11,637 nucleotides of DNA, taken from IMG/VR virus record IMGVR_UViG_2534681675_000022. One strand, given 5' to 3'. The notes under the pieces are model-generated. The model searched no databases, was not told the DNA's origin, and saw nothing but the letters and a program-made list of their open reading frames with translations. Made by a program: the position numbers and the translations under genes. Shown here piece after piece: positions 2,025 through 11,637 of the stretch. The DNA comes from a virus (Duplodnaviria; Heunggongvirae; Uroviricota; Caudoviricetes). Numbering within the stretch: the stretch's first letter is position 1; each line of letters starts with the position of its first letter.

Positions 2025-2228
2025 TCAGGCTGGTGGGCAATTACCTTGCTTGTTGGGGCCGTATTGTGCTGCCATTTTCATCCGTTCAGAACGTGAATAT
2101 TTTTTTAGAAACTCATCAAGGACAAAAGCGCATGGAGCGAATCTTTCTGATTCATGCTCGAGCGCCATATTTTCGTGCTCTCTGTTCGTTTTTTGCGATG
2201 GTGTATTGGTTGATTCTTTATTGGTCAT
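2025..2228 (-). CDS. Hypothetical small protein (67 aa), paralog 1 of a duplicated pair
   Basis: ORF begins MTNK, shares the motif F-x-L-[DE]-[DE]-F-[LV]-x-K-Y with the 2686-2913 ORF, is preceded by the same conserved leader and followed by a minus-strand terminator. The overlapping plus-strand ORFs are Cys/Ser/Arg-rich and look non-coding. Confidence 0.45.
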   Translation of the reverse strand: MTNKESTNTPSQKTNREHENMALEHESERFAPCAFVLDEFLKKYSRSERMKMAAQYGPNKQGNCPPA

Positions 2229-2233
2229 TGTGT

Positions 2234-2279
2234 GTACCTGTAAAGCAATGCGCCGGAGTTCCTCACGCCACGGCGCTGA
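2234..2279. repeat. Conserved ~45-bp leader element, copy 1 (5' of the minus-strand ORF 2025-2228)
   Basis: About 44 of 47 positions identical to 2923-2966. On the minus strand it reads ATCAGCGCCGTGGCGTGAGGAACTCCGGCGCATTGCTTTACAGG, containing a GCGCCG/CGGCGC 6-bp stem. Confidence 0.6.
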
Positions 2280-2521
2280 TGTTTTTTATTCTTTGGGTTC
2301 AATACCGCGTTGCTGTAATTCTTTTCGGATTATTCGTTTTATCCAAGCTGCTAAAGAGTCATCACCGTCTTGTTGTTGTGCTTTTTCCATCTTTTCCCGT
2401 AAGTCAGGATCTAAACGGAACTGGAAAGGAGGATTACCACGCCTTTCATTTTTGTGTGTTGACACGTCAATTACACCCCATATAATGTGTTTATGTGTAT
2501 ATACACATTACACACAACTAG

Positions 2522-2566
2522 CACAAAAAACAACGCCCCGCAGTGATGGGAACACATACGGGGCGT
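2522..2566 (-). terminator. Intrinsic terminator on minus strand, downstream of the 2686-2913 ORF
   Basis: ACGCCCCG / CGGGGCGT 8-bp stem with 18-nt loop; on the minus strand it is followed by TGTTTTTTGTGC. Confidence 0.4.
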
Positions 2567-2685
2567 CTAACCAAACCATTAATTGAGGTAACGATTATGG
2601 CTATAAAAGAGCATAGCTTACTCTTTATACACACACAAACGCCCCGGAAACGGAATAATCCGTTTCATAGTTCGGTTTTGTGCAC

Positions 2686-2913
2686 TCATCCTGGCGGTCG
2701 GTTTTTGCCGGATTTAAGCCGCCGTGGGTATTTATCGACAAAATCTTCAAGGGCAAATTTTTCTGGTGGCACTAAGCGCGGCGCTGGTGGTGGTATTTTT
2801 GTTCTGGTTAGTTCTTCCTCAAGTCTGGCGCAGGCTTCTGACTGCCTTTGCCGGATGATTTCATCATCTTGCGTTTGCGTGTCTTGTATTGGTGATAGTG
2901 TGTTGTTGGTCAT
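2686..2913 (-). CDS. Hypothetical small protein (75 aa), paralog 2 of a duplicated pair
   Basis: ORF begins MTNN, contains FALEDFVDKYPRR (compare FVLDEFLKKYSRS in the 2025-2228 ORF), and has the same leader immediately 5'. Confidence 0.45.
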   Translation of the reverse strand: MTNNTLSPIQDTQTQDDEIIRQRQSEACARLEEELTRTKIPPPAPRLVPPEKFALEDFVDKYPRRLKSGKNRPPG

Positions 2914-2922
2914 GTTACTGCC

Positions 2923-2966
2923 CTGTAAAGCAATGCGCCGTAGTACCTCACACCACGGCGCTGATA
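2923..2966. repeat. Conserved ~45-bp leader element, copy 2 (between RHH gene stop and ORF 2686-2913)
   Basis: Near-identical to 2234-2279. The three differences all fall in the loop of the GCGCCG/CGGCGC hairpin, so the stem is preserved. Confidence 0.6.
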
Positions 2967-2970
2967 GTGA

Positions 2971-3150
2971 TTATTCTGATTCTTTGGCCTTGCGGCGCTG
3001 GCGGCGTTTGATCTCGCCTTCAAGTGCCGAAACGATAAATTGCCCTGTACTTTCGCCATCTTCCTTTAAATTTTCTACAGCATCAGCTATTGCGTGTGGT
3101 ACTCGAGCCTCAAGCTTTTTGGATTTTGCATTAACTGCTTTTGTTGCCAT
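2971..3150 (-). CDS. Ribbon-helix-helix (Arc/MetJ/CopG-like) DNA-binding protein, 59 aa; candidate island repressor
   Basis: Internal ATG at 3148-3150 with a GAGGAAA Shine-Dalgarno; the ORF track's longer 106-aa version has a poor N-terminus. MATKAVNAKSKKLEARVPHAIADAVENLKEDGESTGQFIVSALEGEI fits the RHH strand/helix/G-x-S/helix pattern (compare Arc ...NLRWPREVLDLVRKVAEENGRSVNSEIYQRV). Divergent from the rightward operon. Confidence 0.5.
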   Translation of the reverse strand: MATKAVNAKSKKLEARVPHAIADAVENLKEDGESTGQFIVSALEGEIKRRQRRKAKESE

Positions 3151-3171
3151 ATCTGATTTCCTCGTTATTAG

Positions 3172-3251
3172 GTGGCTGACAGTATACACACAAGAAAACG
3201 GAAAAACACTATTGACGTGGCTGACACCCGTTACTAATATAGTGGCTGACA
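3172..3251. promoter_or_regulatory. Divergent control region: three direct repeats GTGGCTGACA overlapping a sigma70-like promoter
   Basis: Perfect 10-bp GTGGCTGACA at 3172-3181, 3217-3226 and 3242-3251. TTGACG (3212-3217), 17-bp spacer, TAATAT (3235-3240) faces the plus-strand operon; repeats overlap the -35 and abut the -10. Confidence 0.5.
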
Positions 3252-3344
3252 CCTTTATCAAGGTAATCGATGAAAAGACAAAGCCCCGCAAGTGTCGTTA
3301 CCACTCGCAGGGCTTCTAACCAACAACGTAAACTAGGAGCCGTT

Positions 3345-3542
3345 ATGGTTGCCGTAAATCATATACCACACCTTGTACACACACAAACTGCCTTTGTGTG
3401 GCGTTTTCTGGCCCTGAGTGCCGGAGAATCTCAAATCATCCACGTCACCGCCTGGACGGAACGCGAAGCGCGTAACCGTTGCCCGTCCGGTTGTGTTGCT
3501 GTATTTGCCGCCCGTATTCGTCAGGAGGTGCGCCATGATTAA
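3345..3542 (+). CDS. Hypothetical protein (65 aa), first gene of rightward operon
   Basis: ATG at 3345 preceded by AGGAG; the longer ORF-track version starts upstream of the RBS. Stop overlaps the start of the next ORF. Confidence 0.5.
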   Translation: MVAVNHIPHLVHTQTAFVWRFLALSAGESQIIHVTAWTEREARNRCPSGCVAVFAARIRQEVRHD

Positions 3543-3747
3543 TCTGTCACTTACTGACCTTAACCGCATTCAGTTTCGTGAGAAATTCACAGGGCAGCTA
3601 CTGGTCAATGTGGATAAAGGTCGCGTGGTGTGTAATTACCACTTACCAGATGAAGCAATTGTCGCCACAAGGGAATCATTACAGGAAATCACAAAACGTG
3701 CCGGAATGATTAACACGAATATTCAGGGGATGCTTTATGCACAATAA
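3535..3747 (+). CDS. Hypothetical protein (70 aa)
   Basis: ATG at 3535 preceded by CAGGAGGTG; translationally coupled to the flanking ORFs. Confidence 0.5.
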   Translation: MINLSLTDLNRIQFREKFTGQLLVNVDKGRVVCNYHLPDEAIVATRESLQEITKRAGMINTNIQGMLYAQ

Positions 3748-3967
3748 AACCACACCGGACGCAGCAGAAGAAGCAATGCAAATACTGATACGTGCGCTCG
3801 TTGATGTTACCCACATGGTGGAGATTATGGAGAGAAAATCACAGTCGGAGCACGACAAAAGAAAACTTAAAACAATAAAAATAATTGCCAAAAACTCGCT
3901 GATAAAAGTTACAGACATCCTTAATGAGGACATTAAAAGAATAAGGGAGAAAATTTGTGATGCATAA
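3737..3967 (+). CDS. Hypothetical protein (76 aa), AT-rich
   Basis: ATG at 3737 with upstream CAGGGGA; Lys/Ile/Glu-rich helical-looking protein; local GC is visibly lower than in neighbours. Confidence 0.5.
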   Translation: MHNKTTPDAAEEAMQILIRALVDVTHMVEIMERKSQSEHDKRKLKTIKIIAKNSLIKVTDILNEDIKRIREKICDA

Positions 3968-4187
3968 AATCCCTTTTGAAGTATTAATCCACTCTGAAAA
4001 CGCATTAATTAAAGCACGCGAAATGAATGCGTTGTTAATTAAATTAATTGAAGTGCCGGAAGGTGGTGAGGAATCAGGTGTATTAATGTTTGCAGCCATT
4101 CAGACATTACTATCGCCTGTTATTGATGAACTGGATAAGGCAATGGCAATTCACGAAAATAATAACGCGCCCCACACCGGAGAATAA
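3957..4187 (+). CDS. Hypothetical protein (76 aa), AT-rich
   Basis: GTG 3957 or ATG 3960 with AAGGGAGA upstream; overlaps the previous stop. Confidence 0.5.
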   Translation: MMHKIPFEVLIHSENALIKAREMNALLIKLIEVPEGGEESGVLMFAAIQTLLSPVIDELDKAMAIHENNNAPHTGE

Positions 4188-4192
4188 AAATA

Positions 4193-4492
4193 ATGAAACT
4201 TAAATATTCTGGCTTAACTGCCAGTGGCAACACTCACCCTAAATTTACGCGCGGTGATATTTACCGCGACCAGTACGGCGGCACGGTAATGATTAAGGGC
4301 GTGGCGGGACGGTGCGTAACTTACCGCCATGAAGGTTACGAATATGATTGCGTGATGCCTGTTTATCAGTTCCGGCGTGATTTTTCTCTGGTACAGACCG
4401 CGCCGCATAACGTGCCCACCAGCAACGCCAGGGCACGGGCAAACATCCAGAAGCTGAAAACCATGATTAACGGATTCAGGGGTAAAAAATGA
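4193..4492 (+). CDS. Hypothetical protein (99 aa), overlaps start of replication gene
   Basis: ATG 4193 with GGAGA upstream; its stop overlaps the ATG of the primase ORF (ATGA coupling). Confidence 0.55.
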   Translation: MKLKYSGLTASGNTHPKFTRGDIYRDQYGGTVMIKGVAGRCVTYRHEGYEYDCVMPVYQFRRDFSLVQTAPHNVPTSNARARANIQKLKTMINGFRGKK

Positions 4493-6237
4493 AACTGGCA
4501 CCGAACGTAAAAAAACAGCCACGCGGAATAAAACACAAAGACACAGAGGTAATTATCTTTGCGGGTAGTGATGCCTGGTCGCACGCGAAACAATGGCAGG
4601 AGCAGGATGGCCCCGCATCCGGCGATAATGTGCCGCCTGTGTGGCTTGGGCCAAAGCAGCTTGCCGAACTTGATGCGCTGAAAATTGTTCCGGATGGGAA
4701 AAAGCGCGTAAGGCTGTACCAGGCCGGAGAACTGGATTTAGTGGAGACCAAAAAGATTGGTCAGAAGCTGGCGGCGGCAGATATTCAGGACGCAAATTTT
4801 TACCACGAAGGAATGCACGTCCAGAAGTGTGAAAACTGGCGGCGCTATCTGAATGCTGAGCGTGAAAATATTGCCGCAGGGCTTACCATGCCGGAGCAGA
4901 AAAATACGCAACTGGCACAAATGGCAGACAGTGAGCGCGCACAGATGCTTGCTGGTCGATTTGATGGCGTTTGTGTGCATCCGGAAAGTGAAATCGTTCA
5001 CGTATGGCGCGGCGGGGTATGGTGTCCGGTCAGCACAATGGAACTTAGCCGCGAAATGGTGGCGATCTATTCAGAGCACAGGGCCACTTTCAGCAAACGC
5101 GTGATCAATAACGCCGTTGAAGCGTTAAAAGTTATTGCCGAACCAATGGGGGAGCCGTCCGGCGATTTGTTGCCGTTCGCCAATGGTGCGCTTGACCTGA
5201 AAACGGGGGAATTTTCCCCGTACACGCCGGAGAACTGGATCACCACGCACAACGGCATTGAGTACACGCCACCAGCACCTGGGGAGAACATCCGCGATAA
5301 CGCGCCAAACTTTCATAAATGGCTTGAGCACGCAGCCGGAAAAGACCCGCGCAAGATGATGCGTATATGTGCCGCGCTGTACATGATTATGGCGAACCGG
5401 TACGACTGGCAGATGTTTATTGAGGCCACCGGAGACGGCGGGAGCGGTAAAAGTACATTCACACACATAGCCAGCCTTCTGGCAGGGAAACAGAACACGG
5501 TAAGCGCTGAAATGACATCGCTTGATGATGCTGGTGGACGTGCGCAGGTTGTCGGGAGTCGTCTTATCGTCCTGGCAGACCAGCCGAAATATACAGGCGA
5601 AGGAACGGGCATCAAGAAAATCACGGGCGGCGACCCCGTGGAAATAAACCCGAAATATGAAAAGCGTTTCACGGCGGTAATCAGGGCGGTGGTGCTGGCG
5701 ACCAATAATAACCCGATGATATTCACCGAACGGGCCGGAGGTGTGGCACGTCGTCGCGTGATTTTCCGTTTCGACAATATTGTTAGTGAGGCCGAAAAAG
5801 ACAGGGAACTACCGGAAAAAATTGCGGCTGAAATCCCCGTTATTATCCGCCGCTTGCTGGCGAACTTTACCGACCCTGAAAAGGCGAGGGCTTTACTACT
5901 GGAACAGCGTGACGGTGATGAAGCACTGGCAATAAAGCAACAGACGGATCCGGTTATTGAGTTTTGCCAGTTCCTGAATTTTCTGGAGGAAGCGCGCGGC
6001 CTGATGATGGGTGGCGGTGGTGATTCAGTGAAGTACACGACCAGGAACAGCCTTTACCGCGTCTATCTGGCGTTTATGGCATACGCAGGCAGGAGCAAAC
6101 CGCTAAACGTGGCTGAGTTCAGCAAGGCCATGAAGCCAGCGGCGAAAGTTTACGGGCATGAATATATTACGCGAAAAGTTAAGGGAGTAACGCAGACCAA
6201 CGCAATTACAACAGACGATTGCGACGCGTTTTTATAA
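4489..6237 (+). CDS. Replication initiator: phage/plasmid primase-associated D5_N-type domain plus P-loop (SF3-helicase-like) NTPase
   Basis: 582-aa ORF. Walker A GDGGSGKST and a Walker B-like hydrophobic stretch RLIVLADQ; central region typical of the P4-family primase C-terminal/D5_N architecture; located directly upstream of an iteron array. Confidence 0.85.
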   Translation: MKLAPNVKKQPRGIKHKDTEVIIFAGSDAWSHAKQWQEQDGPASGDNVPPVWLGPKQLAELDALKIVPDGKKRVRLYQAGELDLVETKKIGQKLAAADIQDANFYHEGMHVQKCENWRRYLNAERENIAAGLTMPEQKNTQLAQMADSERAQMLAGRFDGVCVHPESEIVHVWRGGVWCPVSTMELSREMVAIYSEHRATFSKRVINNAVEALKVIAEPMGEPSGDLLPFANGALDLKTGEFSPYTPENWITTHNGIEYTPPAPGENIRDNAPNFHKWLEHAAGKDPRKMMRICAALYMIMANRYDWQMFIEATGDGGSGKSTFTHIASLLAGKQNTVSAEMTSLDDAGGRAQVVGSRLIVLADQPKYTGEGTGIKKITGGDPVEINPKYEKRFTAVIRAVVLATNNNPMIFTERAGGVARRRVIFRFDNIVSEAEKDRELPEKIAAEIPVIIRRLLANFTDPEKARALLLEQRDGDEALAIKQQTDPVIEFCQFLNFLEEARGLMMGGGGDSVKYTTRNSLYRVYLAFMAYAGRSKPLNVAEFSKAMKPAAKVYGHEYITRKVKGVTQTNAITTDDCDAFL

Positions 6238-6250
6238 TTTTTTGTAAAAG

Positions 6251-6477
6251 CCCTCTACCCCATCTACCTGAATGAAATAAACGCATATTATTCAACATGA
6301 TAAGTGGGTAGAGGGCCAGGTAGAAGGCTAATAAAAGCTCTCTACCTCTTCTACCTGATTTTATCAGTTTCAGATGGCAGGGTAGACGGCAGGTAGAGGA
6401 GCACCAAAAGCTATCTACCCGCTGAAAGCCGCGCCATTACTGACATGATGAGCATTCGGGTAGATGGGTAGAGGGGG
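6251..6477. repeat. Iteron array (candidate replication origin)
   Basis: About 11 copies of GGTAGA[GATC]GG in both orientations, arranged in pairs (CCCTCTACCCCATCTACC; GGGTAGAGGGCCAGGTAGAAGG; CTCTCTACCTCTTCTACC; GGGTAGACGGCAGGTAGAGG; CTATCTACCC; GGGTAGATGGGTAGAGGG) with AT-rich spacers, immediately 3' of the replication gene. Confidence 0.7.
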
Positions 6478-7479: not shown

Positions 7480-7686
7480 ATGGCAGAAGAGAAAAAAGGC
7501 GGTGTTTCGGTGTACATAAGCCCCGAAATCGTGGAGGTGCTCAAGCAGCGCCACAAAAAAAACTATGAGGCTGGCGTAGCGGCTGGACTGGATCCGCTGA
7601 TGACGCCGGAGCCGTCGATAGGTTCACTTGTGCGCTCTTATTTACTTGCGGCGCTTGGGATGCATAAAAATTATGGGGGTGAATAA
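7480..7686 (+). CDS. Hypothetical protein (68 aa), first gene of capsid operon
   Basis: ATG 7480 with AGAGGA upstream; its stop overlaps the ATG of the major capsid gene. Confidence 0.55.
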   Translation: MAEEKKGGVSVYISPEIVEVLKQRHKKNYEAGVAAGLDPLMTPEPSIGSLVRSYLLAALGMHKNYGGE

Positions 7687-8741
7687 TGGCAGGCAAAGCA
7701 ACGGCACTTAACACTAACCAGCTTTTTGCGTACCTGAATCGCGGGGATATTGCGGAATTTAAATTCAGTCCGCTGTTTACCACGCTGTTTTTCCCGAACG
7801 TGGCGACATTCAGCACCCAAAACATCATGCTGGATACCCTGGACATTGAAGAAGTCACCATGTCGGCGTTTTGTTCGCCTATGGTTGGCAGCCAGGTACA
7901 GCGCGATAAAGGATACGAAACCAGCACGATTAAACCTGGCTACATGAAGCCAAAGCACGAAATCGATCCAACAAAAACCATCATGCGCATGGCTGGAGAA
8001 GATCCGGCACAGCTTAACGACCCTACCTACCGACGTATGCGCCTGATTACTGGCAACATGCGCCGCCAGGTAAACGCCATTAAAGCGCGCGTGGAATGGC
8101 TGGCGGTGAATGCGATAACGACCGGAAAAAACATTATTGAGGGCGAAGGCATAGAACGCTATGAAATAGACTGGAAAATACCGGAAAACTGCATCATAGA
8201 GCAGGCCAAGGGTAAAAAATGGTCCGAGCAGGATAAAGAGATGCACGACCCAATCTATGACATCGAGCTTTATGCAGATCAGGCTGGTTGCCCCGCAAAC
8301 GTCATGATTATGGGCGCTGAGGTATGGCGCACGTTACGCAGCTTTAAAAAATTCCGTGAGCTGTACGATCTTTCCCGTGGTTCAGAATCCGCCGCAGAAC
8401 TGGCCTGTAAAAACCTGGGCGAAGTGGTGAGCTTTAAAGGCTATCTGGGCGATATTGCCCTTATCGTCTATTCCGGCAAATACGCTGACAGCGACGGCAC
8501 CGAAAAATATTTCCTTGAGCCTGATTTACTGGTCCTGGGTAACACCAACAATAAAGGCCTGGTGGCCTATGGTGCGATTATGGATCAGGAAGCGGTCAGA
8601 ACGGGCGCAACGCAAAACATGTACTACCCGAAAAACTGGATTGAGGACGGCGATCCGGCGATTGAGTACGTGCAGACACACAGCGCACCGCAGCCGGTAC
8701 CGGCAGATATTCGCAAATTTGTTACCGTCAAAATTGGTTAA
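7686..8741 (+). CDS. Major capsid protein, phage lambda gpE family
   Basis: 351-aa ORF colinear over its whole length with lambda gpE (341 aa) as I recall it: EFKFSPLF vs KFKFDPLF; PGYMKPKHEI vs PGYVKPKHEV; EDPAQLNDPTYRRMR vs EDPQNLADPAYRRRR; SRGSESAAELACKNLGEVVSFKGYLGDIALIVYSGKY vs RRGSNSELETAVKDLGKAVSYKGMYGDVAIVVYSGQY; YPKNWIEDGDPAIEY vs YPKNWVTTGDPAREF. Confidence 0.9.
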   Translation: MAGKATALNTNQLFAYLNRGDIAEFKFSPLFTTLFFPNVATFSTQNIMLDTLDIEEVTMSAFCSPMVGSQVQRDKGYETSTIKPGYMKPKHEIDPTKTIMRMAGEDPAQLNDPTYRRMRLITGNMRRQVNAIKARVEWLAVNAITTGKNIIEGEGIERYEIDWKIPENCIIEQAKGKKWSEQDKEMHDPIYDIELYADQAGCPANVMIMGAEVWRTLRSFKKFRELYDLSRGSESAAELACKNLGEVVSFKGYLGDIALIVYSGKYADSDGTEKYFLEPDLLVLGNTNNKGLVAYGAIMDQEAVRTGATQNMYYPKNWIEDGDPAIEYVQTHSAPQPVPADIRKFVTVKIG

Positions 8742-8752
8742 CGGGGGATTCT

Positions 8753-9088
8753 ATGGACACTCCATACATTGAGTTATTCGCAGGCAGTCAGCAGGTCGCC
8801 ACGACGCTGGTACATTTTGCCGCTGATGCTGGCGTTATTCAGGAATTTACCCCGCTGATGCTGGCGGACAATGGCGAGTTTAAGCCGTGGGATGGTCAGG
8901 AATCTGGCAAGGCTGTTTATCTGACTTCGTACCCCGTGGACACGTCGACGCAGAAATCAGCACAGTGTTACAAGACGGGGATATTTAATATCGCTGCCGT
9001 AAACTGGCCTGAGAGCGCCGACACTGACGCGAAAAAATGCGCTGCCTTTGCGGGGGCTGGCGTATCCGTTCAGCCGCTGGCCCGATAA
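8753..9088 (+). CDS. Head decoration protein, phage lambda gpD family
   Basis: 111-aa ORF. TPLMLADNGEFKPWDG, YKTGIF and WPESADTDAKKCAAFAGAGVSV match lambda gpD ([46 protein letters not shown]). GGGGGA Shine-Dalgarno upstream. Confidence 0.85.
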   Translation: MDTPYIELFAGSQQVATTLVHFAADAGVIQEFTPLMLADNGEFKPWDGQESGKAVYLTSYPVDTSTQKSAQCYKTGIFNIAAVNWPESADTDAKKCAAFAGAGVSVQPLAR

Positions 9089-9097
9089 GCAGGGGGA

Positions 9098-9514
9098 ATG
9101 ATGGCAACGAATGAAAGCATCATGACGCTACCGCTGGCGAGTAAATTTAAAGCCGAAGCGCGGGCAATGGCTGACAGAGGGTTATCAACCTACGAGGGCA
9201 TATATCAACTTAACAAACTGGAAGAGCAGGACAAGCCGCGCGCTGATTCGATTATGGCGCTTGATGAATCTGGCGACTATCAGCCGCTGTTACGTGCAAT
9301 GGCAAACGTGCCTTGTATCGATGTTGGTACGGCTAAAAGCATCCTTAGCATGACCATAGAGCAGGAACGTCCGAAGGTTGCGCCGGAGCTTACCGCAGCC
9401 TTTGAAAACTTTATGGACACGCACAGCCCGCAAGCCGTATCAGCTGGCATGGCATACGATGGCAGAAACCCGGGCGATGACGGCGACATCGATCGCATAC
9501 TGAAAACCATCTGA
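9098..9514 (+). CDS. Hypothetical protein (138 aa) downstream of the capsid genes
   Basis: ATG 9098 or 9101 after AGGGGG; last gene before the terminator and cos. Sits where lambda has FI, but I could not support sequence similarity to FI. Confidence 0.55.
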   Translation: MMATNESIMTLPLASKFKAEARAMADRGLSTYEGIYQLNKLEEQDKPRADSIMALDESGDYQPLLRAMANVPCIDVGTAKSILSMTIEQERPKVAPELTAAFENFMDTHSPQAVSAGMAYDGRNPGDDGDIDRILKTI

Positions 9515-9516
9515 GA

Positions 9517-9542
9517 CAGGCCGGAGAAATCCGGCTTTTTTT
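9517..9542 (+). terminator. Intrinsic terminator after the capsid operon, abutting cos
   Basis: GCCGGA gaaa TCCGGC followed by eight T residues; near-duplicate of the 7251-7273 terminator. Confidence 0.75.
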
Positions 9543-9610
9543 ACGGGTCCTTTCCGGCATATGGACCCGTTACGGGGCGGCGACCTCGCGCGTTTTCGCT
9601 ATTTATGAGC
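9543..9610 (+). other. Lambda-type cos site A: cosQ-side flank, cosN (12-nt cohesive end GGGCGGCGACCT at 9575-9586) and first ~24 bp of the cosB side
   Basis: ACGGGTCCTTTCCGG...GTTACG GGGCGGCGACCT CGCGCGTTTTCGCTATTTATGA is almost base-for-base the lambda right-end/left-end junction as I recall it; similarity ends after TTTATGA. Confidence 0.75.
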
Positions 9611-9719
9611 CTTTTCAGGGGGGTGGTGGTGGTTTTGTTGTTTGCTCTATCTTTATGAATGAAAAGGGAAAGATGCAAACAATACACCAACCTGAAGCAG
9701 TAATTAAGTTGGTGTATTA

Positions 9720-10262
9720 ATGAAATCGCACCTGATGAACAAAAAAAACATGGCGAAAAGCTGCCGTGTAAGTGCGACAGCGTTCGACAAGTGGGGAGTG
9801 ACTCCCGTTGAACGTAAAGGCCGTGAGGCGTTTTATGATGTTGCCAGCGTGATAGACAATAGGGTTAACAATGCAATTAGCCAGCTTACAAACGACAAAG
9901 GCGATATTGATGATGATGAACTCTTACGAGTCAGGATCAGATTACTGACAGCACAGGCGGAGGCGCAGGAACTTAAAAACGAGCGCGATCGCGGTGACGT
10001 GATTGATACTGAGTTTTGCCTGTACGCGCTTTCAAAGCTGGCGAGTCAGATTTCATCAATCATGGACAGCCTCCCGCTTACTATGCAAAGGAGCTTCCCA
10101 CAGATTACCCCCGCCATGCTGGACAGGCTTAAAAGGGAAGTGGTTAAAGCCTGTAATGCCAGTGCCAGAGTTGCCGACAACCTCCCACAGATACTGGCTG
10201 ATTACTTGAAAGAAACAACCGGAAACGTACCGGAAAAGTTGCTACAGAAGAAAGGCAAGTAA
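9720..10262 (+). CDS. Terminase small subunit, lambda Nu1 family
   Basis: 180-aa ORF. C-terminal two-thirds align with lambda Nu1: LLTAQAEAQELKNERD vs LTRAQADAQELKNARD; FCLYALSKLASQISSIMDSLPLTMQRSFPQ vs FCTFVLSRIAGEIASILDGLPLSVQRRFPE; LKREVVKACN vs LKRDIIKAMN. N-terminal wHTH region is recognisable (NKK..., YDVASVI vs YDSAAVI) but divergent in the recognition-helix region. Start could be 9720, 9735 or 9750. Confidence 0.85.
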   Translation: MKSHLMNKKNMAKSCRVSATAFDKWGVTPVERKGREAFYDVASVIDNRVNNAISQLTNDKGDIDDDELLRVRIRLLTAQAEAQELKNERDRGDVIDTEFCLYALSKLASQISSIMDSLPLTMQRSFPQITPAMLDRLKREVVKACNASARVADNLPQILADYLKETTGNVPEKLLQKKGK

Positions 10263-11484: not shown

Positions 11485-11637
11485 TCAAAATAAGTTATAT
11501 ATAACAGCAATAAATAATGCGAGAATAAACGGCACGAGGATCTCGGCGGCAAAACGGATACCGCAGAGAATAATGACCAGCATTCCCAACATAATGACGA
11601 TTTTTAGACCATTGAGCGTGATGATCGGCTTTGCCAT
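11485..11637 (-). CDS. Short ORF (50 aa): N-terminal fragment resembling the AI-2 exporter TqsA/YdgG (AI-2E family) membrane protein, apparently truncated at the island junction
   Basis: Minus-strand translation from the ATG at 11637: [46 protein letters not shown], then YNLF and stop. This matches the TqsA N-terminus as I recall it for ~46 residues; the downstream sequence becomes AT-rich and unrelated. Confidence 0.5.

Follow-up and report, generated by a model that had tools for sequence, protein, structure and literature searches.

What are two small, AT-rich genes doing inside the replication operon of a phage satellite, and does their composition betray a recent arrival? The genes, here called orfA and orfB, occupy positions 3737-4187 of a stretch of 11,637 nucleotides (the window, numbered from its first letter). 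A first-pass annotation, made from the letters and their open reading frames, had read them as recently acquired cargo, adding that cargo in this position is often an anti-phage or anti-helper interference function or a counter-defence function.

The satellite and its early operon

The window is a PICI-type phage satellite from E. coli, inserted in tqsA. Indeed, a tyrosine integrase (1-1218) followed by AlpA (1593-1781; PF05930, E = 5e-18) stands at one end, as in the definition of a PICI. In parallel, the order of replicase and then iterons that identifies a Gram-negative PICI is represented by the primase at 4489-6237 and the TCTACC iterons at 6245-6419 (a candidate origin), and the island measures around 11.6 kb between the two halves of tqsA, within the 10-15 kb of a PICI with its own attachment site. 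The satellite gene set comprises int, AlpA, a D5_N primase, SSB, a lambda E-like capsid protein and a Nu1-like TerS, and no tail or lysis genes are found among the RefSeq-annotated features of the island. A 99.9% identical copy of the window resides within tqsA of E. coli OkiPb01694. The gene that the island interrupts encodes an AI-2 transporter, and its two parts are seen at 407-1312 and 12994-13137 of locus L001.

The packaging module (7686-10262) is composed of a lambda E-like major capsid protein, a gpD/HDPD-like decoration protein and the Nu1-like TerS, and no portal, protease or TerL is annotated in the window by RefSeq together with a Pfam scan of part of the ORFs. The set that defines a cf-PICI (TerL, portal, protease, head-tail adaptor and connector, together with the capsid) is incomplete in the window, and the module is that of neither a classical PICI nor a complete cf-PICI. 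A 138-aa ORF at 9101-9514 is probably the gene named 'head-tail connector' in some RefSeq records. Closely related blocks of small ORFs, DUF4222 and primase are seen with other modules, namely with an HK97 capsid, S78 protease and portal in L003 and with a ClpP-capsid fusion in L031-L037.

The early operon runs rightward in the order icd-like gene, s1, orfA, orfB, DUF4222/RgdR and primase. The Shine-Dalgarno sequence of each gene lies within the preceding gene, and most neighbours overlap. The features needed for what follows are:

3208-3253, plus strand: pair of 21-nt direct repeats, ACTATTGACGTGGCTGACACC and ACTAATATAGTGGCTGACACC, candidate promoter/operator for the operon running from icd to primase
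3345-3542, plus strand: small Icd-like protein, encoded at the head of the operon (NCBIfam NF033153 phage_ICD_like, E = 5e-18; RefSeq)
3535-3747, plus strand: s1, 70-aa ORF (phrog_340, E = 1e-23; GC 0.418)
3737-3967, plus strand: orfA, 76 aa, predicted two-helix hairpin, pI 8.8 (phrog_5146, E = 5e-6)
3742-3767, plus strand: left cassette junction, containing CACACCGGA (blastn breakpoints; conserved N-terminal codons of orfA)
3960-4187, plus strand: orfB, 75 aa, predicted two-helix hairpin, acidic (phrog_2196, E = 2e-8)
4173-4187, plus strand: right junction, CACACCGGAGAATAA (last orfB codons, HTGE and stop, with the DUF4222 Shine-Dalgarno)
4193-4492, plus strand: DUF4222/RgdR-family protein, 99 aa (Pfam PF13973, E = 6e-22)
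4489-6237, plus strand: D5_N/DUF5906 primase-helicase (40% identity with P4 alpha, C-terminal part)
6245-6419, plus strand: TCTACC iterons, direct-repeat units of 27-30 nt, directly downstream of the primase
11485-11637, minus strand: TqsA N-terminus, the rest of the gene being on the other side of the island

The repeats at 3208-3253 overlap the sole sigma-70-like promoter ahead of the icd operon (site 3212-3240, in a sequence where the number of such sites does not exceed chance), and are a candidate operator for the regulator of the island. Control of the operon by AlpA is assumed here by analogy with published PICIs (PMC6092414, PMC11773190). Between alpA and the icd operon, the minus strand at 2025-3150 carries a tandem duplication of two leftward-transcribed genes, a hypothetical protein of 67/75 aa and a YlcI/YnfO (Arc-like) protein of 59 aa, whose copies are joined by a 75-nt repeat (2218-2292 and 2903-2977, 80%).

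The DUF4222 protein of the window is basic (pI 10.1, net charge +11), has an RGD at residues 20-22, and its gene overlaps the start of the primase (ATGA). The gene in the same position is annotated rgdR in O157:H7 strain RIMD 0509939. RgdR is a regulator of LEE type III secretion and motility from CP-933C/O-island 51 of O157:H7, and its DNA binding is non-specific (PMC3378721); rgdR was reported in all the E. coli PICIs analysed (PMC6092414).

Composition and exchange of the pocket

The pocket is indeed more AT-rich than its neighbours in the operon, as the first-pass annotation had it, and both AT runs quoted there are present, at 3862 and 4035. At 0.381, the GC content of 3737-4187 is lower than that of the window (0.482) and that of the remaining icd-to-primase operon (0.516; Fisher p = 1.6e-7). 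Segments of 451 nt that are as AT-rich make up only 3.2% of the total and fall in two troughs, the pocket and the int-alpA intergenic region. In particular, orfA (0.377) and orfB (0.382) have the lowest GC among the 20 genes tabulated. The calculation of codon usage, which had been proposed as a check together with that of GC, also returns a significant difference from the flanks, with a GC3 of 0.376 in the pocket versus 0.565 in the flanking operon genes (p = 3e-5); gene by gene, it is 0.40 (orfA) and 0.33 (orfB), with DUF4222 and primase at 0.56-0.57. When the same amino acids are re-coded with the codon usage of the island core, GC is predicted at 0.43 for orfA and 0.48 for orfB, and GC3 at 0.52-0.55. 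Thus, the GC deficit depends in part on amino-acid composition, which explains most of it for orfA and a minor share for orfB, and in part on synonymous choice. The onset of the trough lies already in s1.

The possibility that the pocket is an origin, a promoter, a terminator or a structured RNA was rejected on motif, folding and Rfam results: it contains no iterons and no excess of promoter or terminator motifs, its folding z-scores are -0.2 and -0.5, and no Rfam match falls within it. As the iterons at 6245-6419 are the probable replication origin of the island, the pocket would not be the origin.

Some part of the segment 3345-4700 matches 1,947 of 5,426 complete E. coli genomes, around one third. 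The comparison set consisted of 37 related loci (designated by L numbers), a non-random sample in which 24 are non-identical over the 700 nt before DUF4222; a search of genome contigs with the primase yielded 3 loci only. From one to five small ORFs, most of them overlapping, fill the slot between icd and DUF4222; they are drawn in mosaic combinations from about six unrelated families. Paralogy among the six families was rejected by hhalign, and orfA and orfB do not align together. The s1 gene is an optional member of the slot, missing in L002 and present in L010, L013 and L014. The last small gene belongs to the orfB family in 21 of the 24 loci, ending 5 nt before the DUF4222 ATG in 19 of them and 17 nt before it in 2. 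This position is kept with a D5_N primase, an AAA_25 RepA helicase or a DUF927 replicase, and also with lambda-E, HK97 (capsid, protease and portal) or ClpP-capsid-fusion modules. Some islands (L016, L017 and L018) have DUF4222 without an orfB-family gene.

Between types, the orfB alleles share around 15-35% amino-acid identity, while the GC of every allele is 32-42% and the reading frames are intact in all alleles. With the loci aligned on the DUF4222 ATG, mean GC is 0.38-0.42 in the preceding 300 nt versus 0.50-0.55 downstream. The finding that all alleles are at 32-42% GC despite such low identity indicates that AT-richness is an old trait of the family and not the mark of a fresh import. 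Recent acquisition can thus be kept for orfA at most, which is patchy and recently exchanged, and has to be abandoned for orfB, which is resident in 21 of 24 loci with all of its alleles AT-rich. More generally, a GC trough in a mobile-element operon need not signal recent acquisition.

The compositional island does coincide with a stretch that has been swapped for other sequence in related islands (from ~3767-3808 to 4173). Indeed, when positions 3000-5000 were compared by blastn with 13 loci, homology was lost at ~3767-3808 and came back exactly at 4173, so that the pocket represents an allelic cassette with conserved junctions. On the left, the nucleotides 3742-3767 are 100% identical in islands whose downstream sequence is unrelated. 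The 9-mer CACACCGGA occurs exactly twice in the window, at 3751-3759 and 4173-4181 (around 0.09 exact copies expected), and the copies coincide with the two limits of the gap in homology to other islands. Of 19 related loci, 8 have the same two copies on either side of a variable stretch of small ORFs, 422-1006 nt long. The copies may be exchange junctions or, alternatively, two independently conserved gene ends. In line with replacement of the cassette, the DUF4222 of the window is 95-99% identical to copies adjoining orfB alleles of only 29-31% identity, and dS between two islands is 0.88 for orfB and 0.23 for the primases.

The two small proteins and their families

The first-pass annotation had described two proteins of 76 aa, rich in Lys, Ile and Glu. 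The length is right for orfA, while orfB has 75 aa from the RefSeq ATG at 3960 (an alternative GTG is at 3957). Likewise, the composition suits orfA, with 15 K+R and 13 D+E, and not orfB, which is acidic (pI 4.9, net charge -7). That the ORFs are real genes is supported by dN/dS values of 0.16-0.40 and intact frames in all alleles, as well as by confident hairpin models and by the Shine-Dalgarno sequence within each preceding gene. Both are under purifying selection, with a dN/dS of 0.40 for orfA and 0.16-0.22 for orfB, similar to or below the 0.45-0.49 of the adjoining DUF4222 gene.

The orfB gene is one allele of a satellite-specific family sited directly before DUF4222/rgdR. Its protein matches the PHROG 2196 profile over positions 2-69 of 74 (E = 2.2e-8), and its family comprises 701 clusters at 90% identity; among the 120 matches listed, the names are E. 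coli, uncultured Escherichia or hypotheticals only. Close homologues of both orfA and orfB carry only Escherichia or Shigella names, where named. An intact, diverged orfB allele is found at L006:2068-2277. Partial megablast matches of 110 nt in chicken isolates were also considered and rejected as remnant fragments in IS-riddled DNA: a set of E. coli genomes, mostly poultry isolates among the matches listed, has only a 110-nt fragment of orfB (L038 3001-3110), which in the one locus examined lies beside ssb and perC remnants amid IS3, IS5 and IS66, in a decayed island.

The orfA family is small, rarer than that of orfB and patchily present: 1.84 billion proteins yield just 8 representatives of it at 50% identity, and the pair of orfA and orfB occurs in 36 of the 5,426 E. 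coli genomes. The family alignment shows a conserved N-terminus, MxNKTTPDAA, and the match of orfA to the PHROG 5146 profile (E = 4.8e-6 over 1-70 of 74 positions) is weaker than that of orfB to PHROG 2196. Over 231 nt, orfA and its counterpart in L002 have 100% identity, although the adjoining orfB differs by around 10%; orfA thus appears to have been exchanged recently between islands.

The proteins carry no recognisable domain, as had been noted by eye: orfA, orfB and s1 matched nothing in Pfam, NCBIfam or PADLOC, and the only hits are PHROGs of unknown function. In particular, PADLOC-DB v2 returned 0 families at E <= 1 for s1, orfA, orfB, DUF4222 and icd. Structure and profile prediction, which had been advised as a check, delivered confident two-helix hairpins (pLDDT 87 and 80) but no informative match. 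The AF2 model of orfA (pLDDT 86.7) has helices at 9-34 and 38-75, and that of orfB (pLDDT 79.9) at 6-30 and 36-68. Foldseek searches with these models (orfB against PDB, orfA against BFVD) retrieved generic helical hairpins only, none at E <= 0.001, and the best profile match to PDB sequences, at E 0.2-0.7, was not significant; as modelled, the hairpins appear to carry no functional information. By tblastn, no match was found in 50,697 deposited phage records for orfA and orfB or in 72,556 plasmids for orfB. Literature searches with locus tags, protein accessions and DUF4222 turned up no work on these small ORFs.

Possible roles of the small genes

The preferred reading, to which we give an even chance, starts from the pocket as the swappable, hypervariable stretch in a row of small early genes, whose alleles pass between islands at conserved short junctions, and takes the gene products to be protein-binding modulators with a target in the helper or the host. 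The small proteins would be made upon induction of the island by a helper phage and would bind protein targets as modulators. For orfB, the target may tentatively be placed outside the island, a helper-phage or host protein being most likely. This placement is suggested by the shuffling of orfB alleles apart from the RgdR allele, the replicase and the capsid module, together with their high polymorphism, and amounts to a lack of co-variation in around 24 non-randomly sampled loci. By analogy, orfB might then be comparable in function to the small helper- or host-directed proteins of the P4 left operon. A bolder version, which we regard as rather unlikely, has the rgdR-coupled orfB family as a hypervariable specificity determinant of PICIs that binds a polymorphic helper-phage or host-immunity protein. 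Possible targets would be a helper repressor or activator, as for P4 epsilon, or a defence sensor. If true, the cassette swapped at CACACCGGA-containing junctions would set which helpers and hosts are open to a given island.

The likeness to P4 resides in the layout. Both operons have an AlpA/Vis-like regulator, a run of small genes and an alpha-type primase (40% identity over 432 aa for the primase of the window), and the P4 left operon is annotated as epsilon (helper derepression), orf151, cnr/orf106 (copy-number regulator) and then the alpha primase. However, neither sequence nor profile comparison links orfA, orfB and s1 to epsilon, orf151 or Cnr, and the small genes of P4 are GC-rich (0.52-0.60) whereas those of the window are AT-rich. 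A relationship of orfA or orfB to the three P4 proteins was rejected, as no blastp E value was better than ~1.6 and hhalign probabilities were <= 0.5%. An epsilon homologue is present in some cf-PICIs (PMC10085698).

A target inside the island has to be weighed against an external one. The acidic orfB could be a partner or antagonist of the basic RgdR/DUF4222, or could control the copy number through the replicase in the manner of Cnr, so that the small ORFs would tune the replication of the island or the output of RgdR. The strict adjacency, with a gap of 5 nt and the rgdR Shine-Dalgarno within the last codons of orfB, speaks for such a link, as do the opposite charges (pI 4.9 and -7 versus pI 10.1 and +11), the position of cnr directly upstream of alpha in P4 and the non-specific DNA binding of RgdR (PMC3378721). 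Yet orfB alleles of ~30% identity stand beside DUF4222 proteins that are 95-99% identical and beside three unrelated types of replicase, which argues against a co-evolving specific interface; moreover, L016, L017 and L018 do without an orfB-family gene next to DUF4222, and similarity to Cnr is absent. We therefore find an internal regulator doubtful. A toxin-antitoxin or abortive-infection-like pair, with orfA as the basic and orfB as the acidic partner, has in its favour that the two genes are small, overlapping and of opposite net charge; it is extremely improbable, as L003 has orfB but no orfA, and members of the orfA family are found with other neighbours. The co-occurrence expected of a type II system is thus not obligate, and neither Pfam nor PADLOC gives a match to a toxin-antitoxin family.

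It is also unlikely, in our judgement, that orfA and orfB are recently acquired cargo with an anti-phage, anti-helper interference or counter-defence role. Phage anti-defence factors are typically small, polymorphic early proteins, and the pocket is both deviant in composition and a physically replaceable cassette; orfA, in addition, is rare, as its 8 family representatives and the 36 genomes with the pair show, and is 100% identical between islands whose flanks differ by ~10%. On the other hand, orfB-family genes are syntenic and near-universal in the operon, with every allele AT-rich, which marks them as resident and not imported. The absence of PADLOC, Pfam and NCBIfam matches weighs in the same direction, and a lone helical hairpin of 75 aa is unlikely as a stand-alone defence system. 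The further statement that cargo in this position is often anti-phage is not supported by the defence hotspots of PICIs described in the literature consulted, which are elsewhere, at the 5' and 3' ends and in the region downstream of pri with Tai systems (PMC11364771). The slot resembles those regions in its variable content within a conserved PICI backbone, but it lies upstream of rgdR and pri, in the early operon, and has much smaller genes with no match to a defence model. An interference or counter-defence function of orfA or orfB is possible all the same. Lastly, the AT-rich DNA could itself be functional, with the ORFs incidental: it might, for example, nucleate H-NS and so silence the operon, or serve as an origin or internal promoter. 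The trough directly upstream of rgdR is kept across alleles, and AT-rich DNA is the usual target of H-NS in E. coli. Nevertheless, we hold this very unlikely, given dN/dS values well below 1 with frames intact in all alleles, the lack of iterons, motif excess, RNA structure (z = -0.5) or Rfam match in the pocket, and a likely origin downstream of the primase. A role for H-NS could, however, be compatible with coding.

The reading of the pocket as an exchangeable chain of modulator genes can be related to described islands. CP-933C/O-island 51 (EcCIEDL933) and EcCICFT073 share with the window the operon architecture of alpA, icd-like gene, small ORFs, rgdR and replicase. The z1835-z1843 fragment, the small-ORF region upstream of rgdR, appears in Flockhart et al. 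2011 (PMC3378721) and Fillol-Salom et al. 2018 (PMC6092414), where only rgdR was characterised; no report on the small ORFs came to light. In the O157:H7 locus L012, the gene annotated rgdR has a member of the orfB family 5 nt ahead of it, as in the window; the locus differs in that the last small gene is an allele of only 15% identity and that orfA is missing. The stretch thus holds the rgdR known as a regulator of type III secretion in EHEC, coupled to small genes previously without study, which form position-locked, highly polymorphic families swapped as cassettes. This places orfB alleles first among candidates for determinants of helper or host specificity, of RgdR or of replication control in Gram-negative PICIs.

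All in all, the pocket is an ordinary, hitherto undescribed example of the mosaic small early ORFs of mobile elements. In lambdoid phages, small-ORF regions such as the nin region are mosaic and exchanged at short conserved boundary sequences. The slot shares with nin-type regions the overlapping, translationally coupled small genes, their variable presence and the breakpoints at gene boundaries. Unlike them, it has its last position filled by one family locked to rgdR (21 of 24 loci), and its orfA and orfB are not found in the 50,697 deposited phage records. A polymorphic family that is locked to rgdR and exchanged at conserved junctions is the notable property of the locus, and a moderately interesting one. 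A side observation concerns the genes of the slot themselves: in O157:H7 strain 2159 (L010 1593-2057), a single 154-aa ORF joins an orfA-family gene to a member of the next slot family (MRDDRFNSL...), while the two are separate genes in other islands (compare L011 1975-2410), which indicates gene fusion or fission within the slot.
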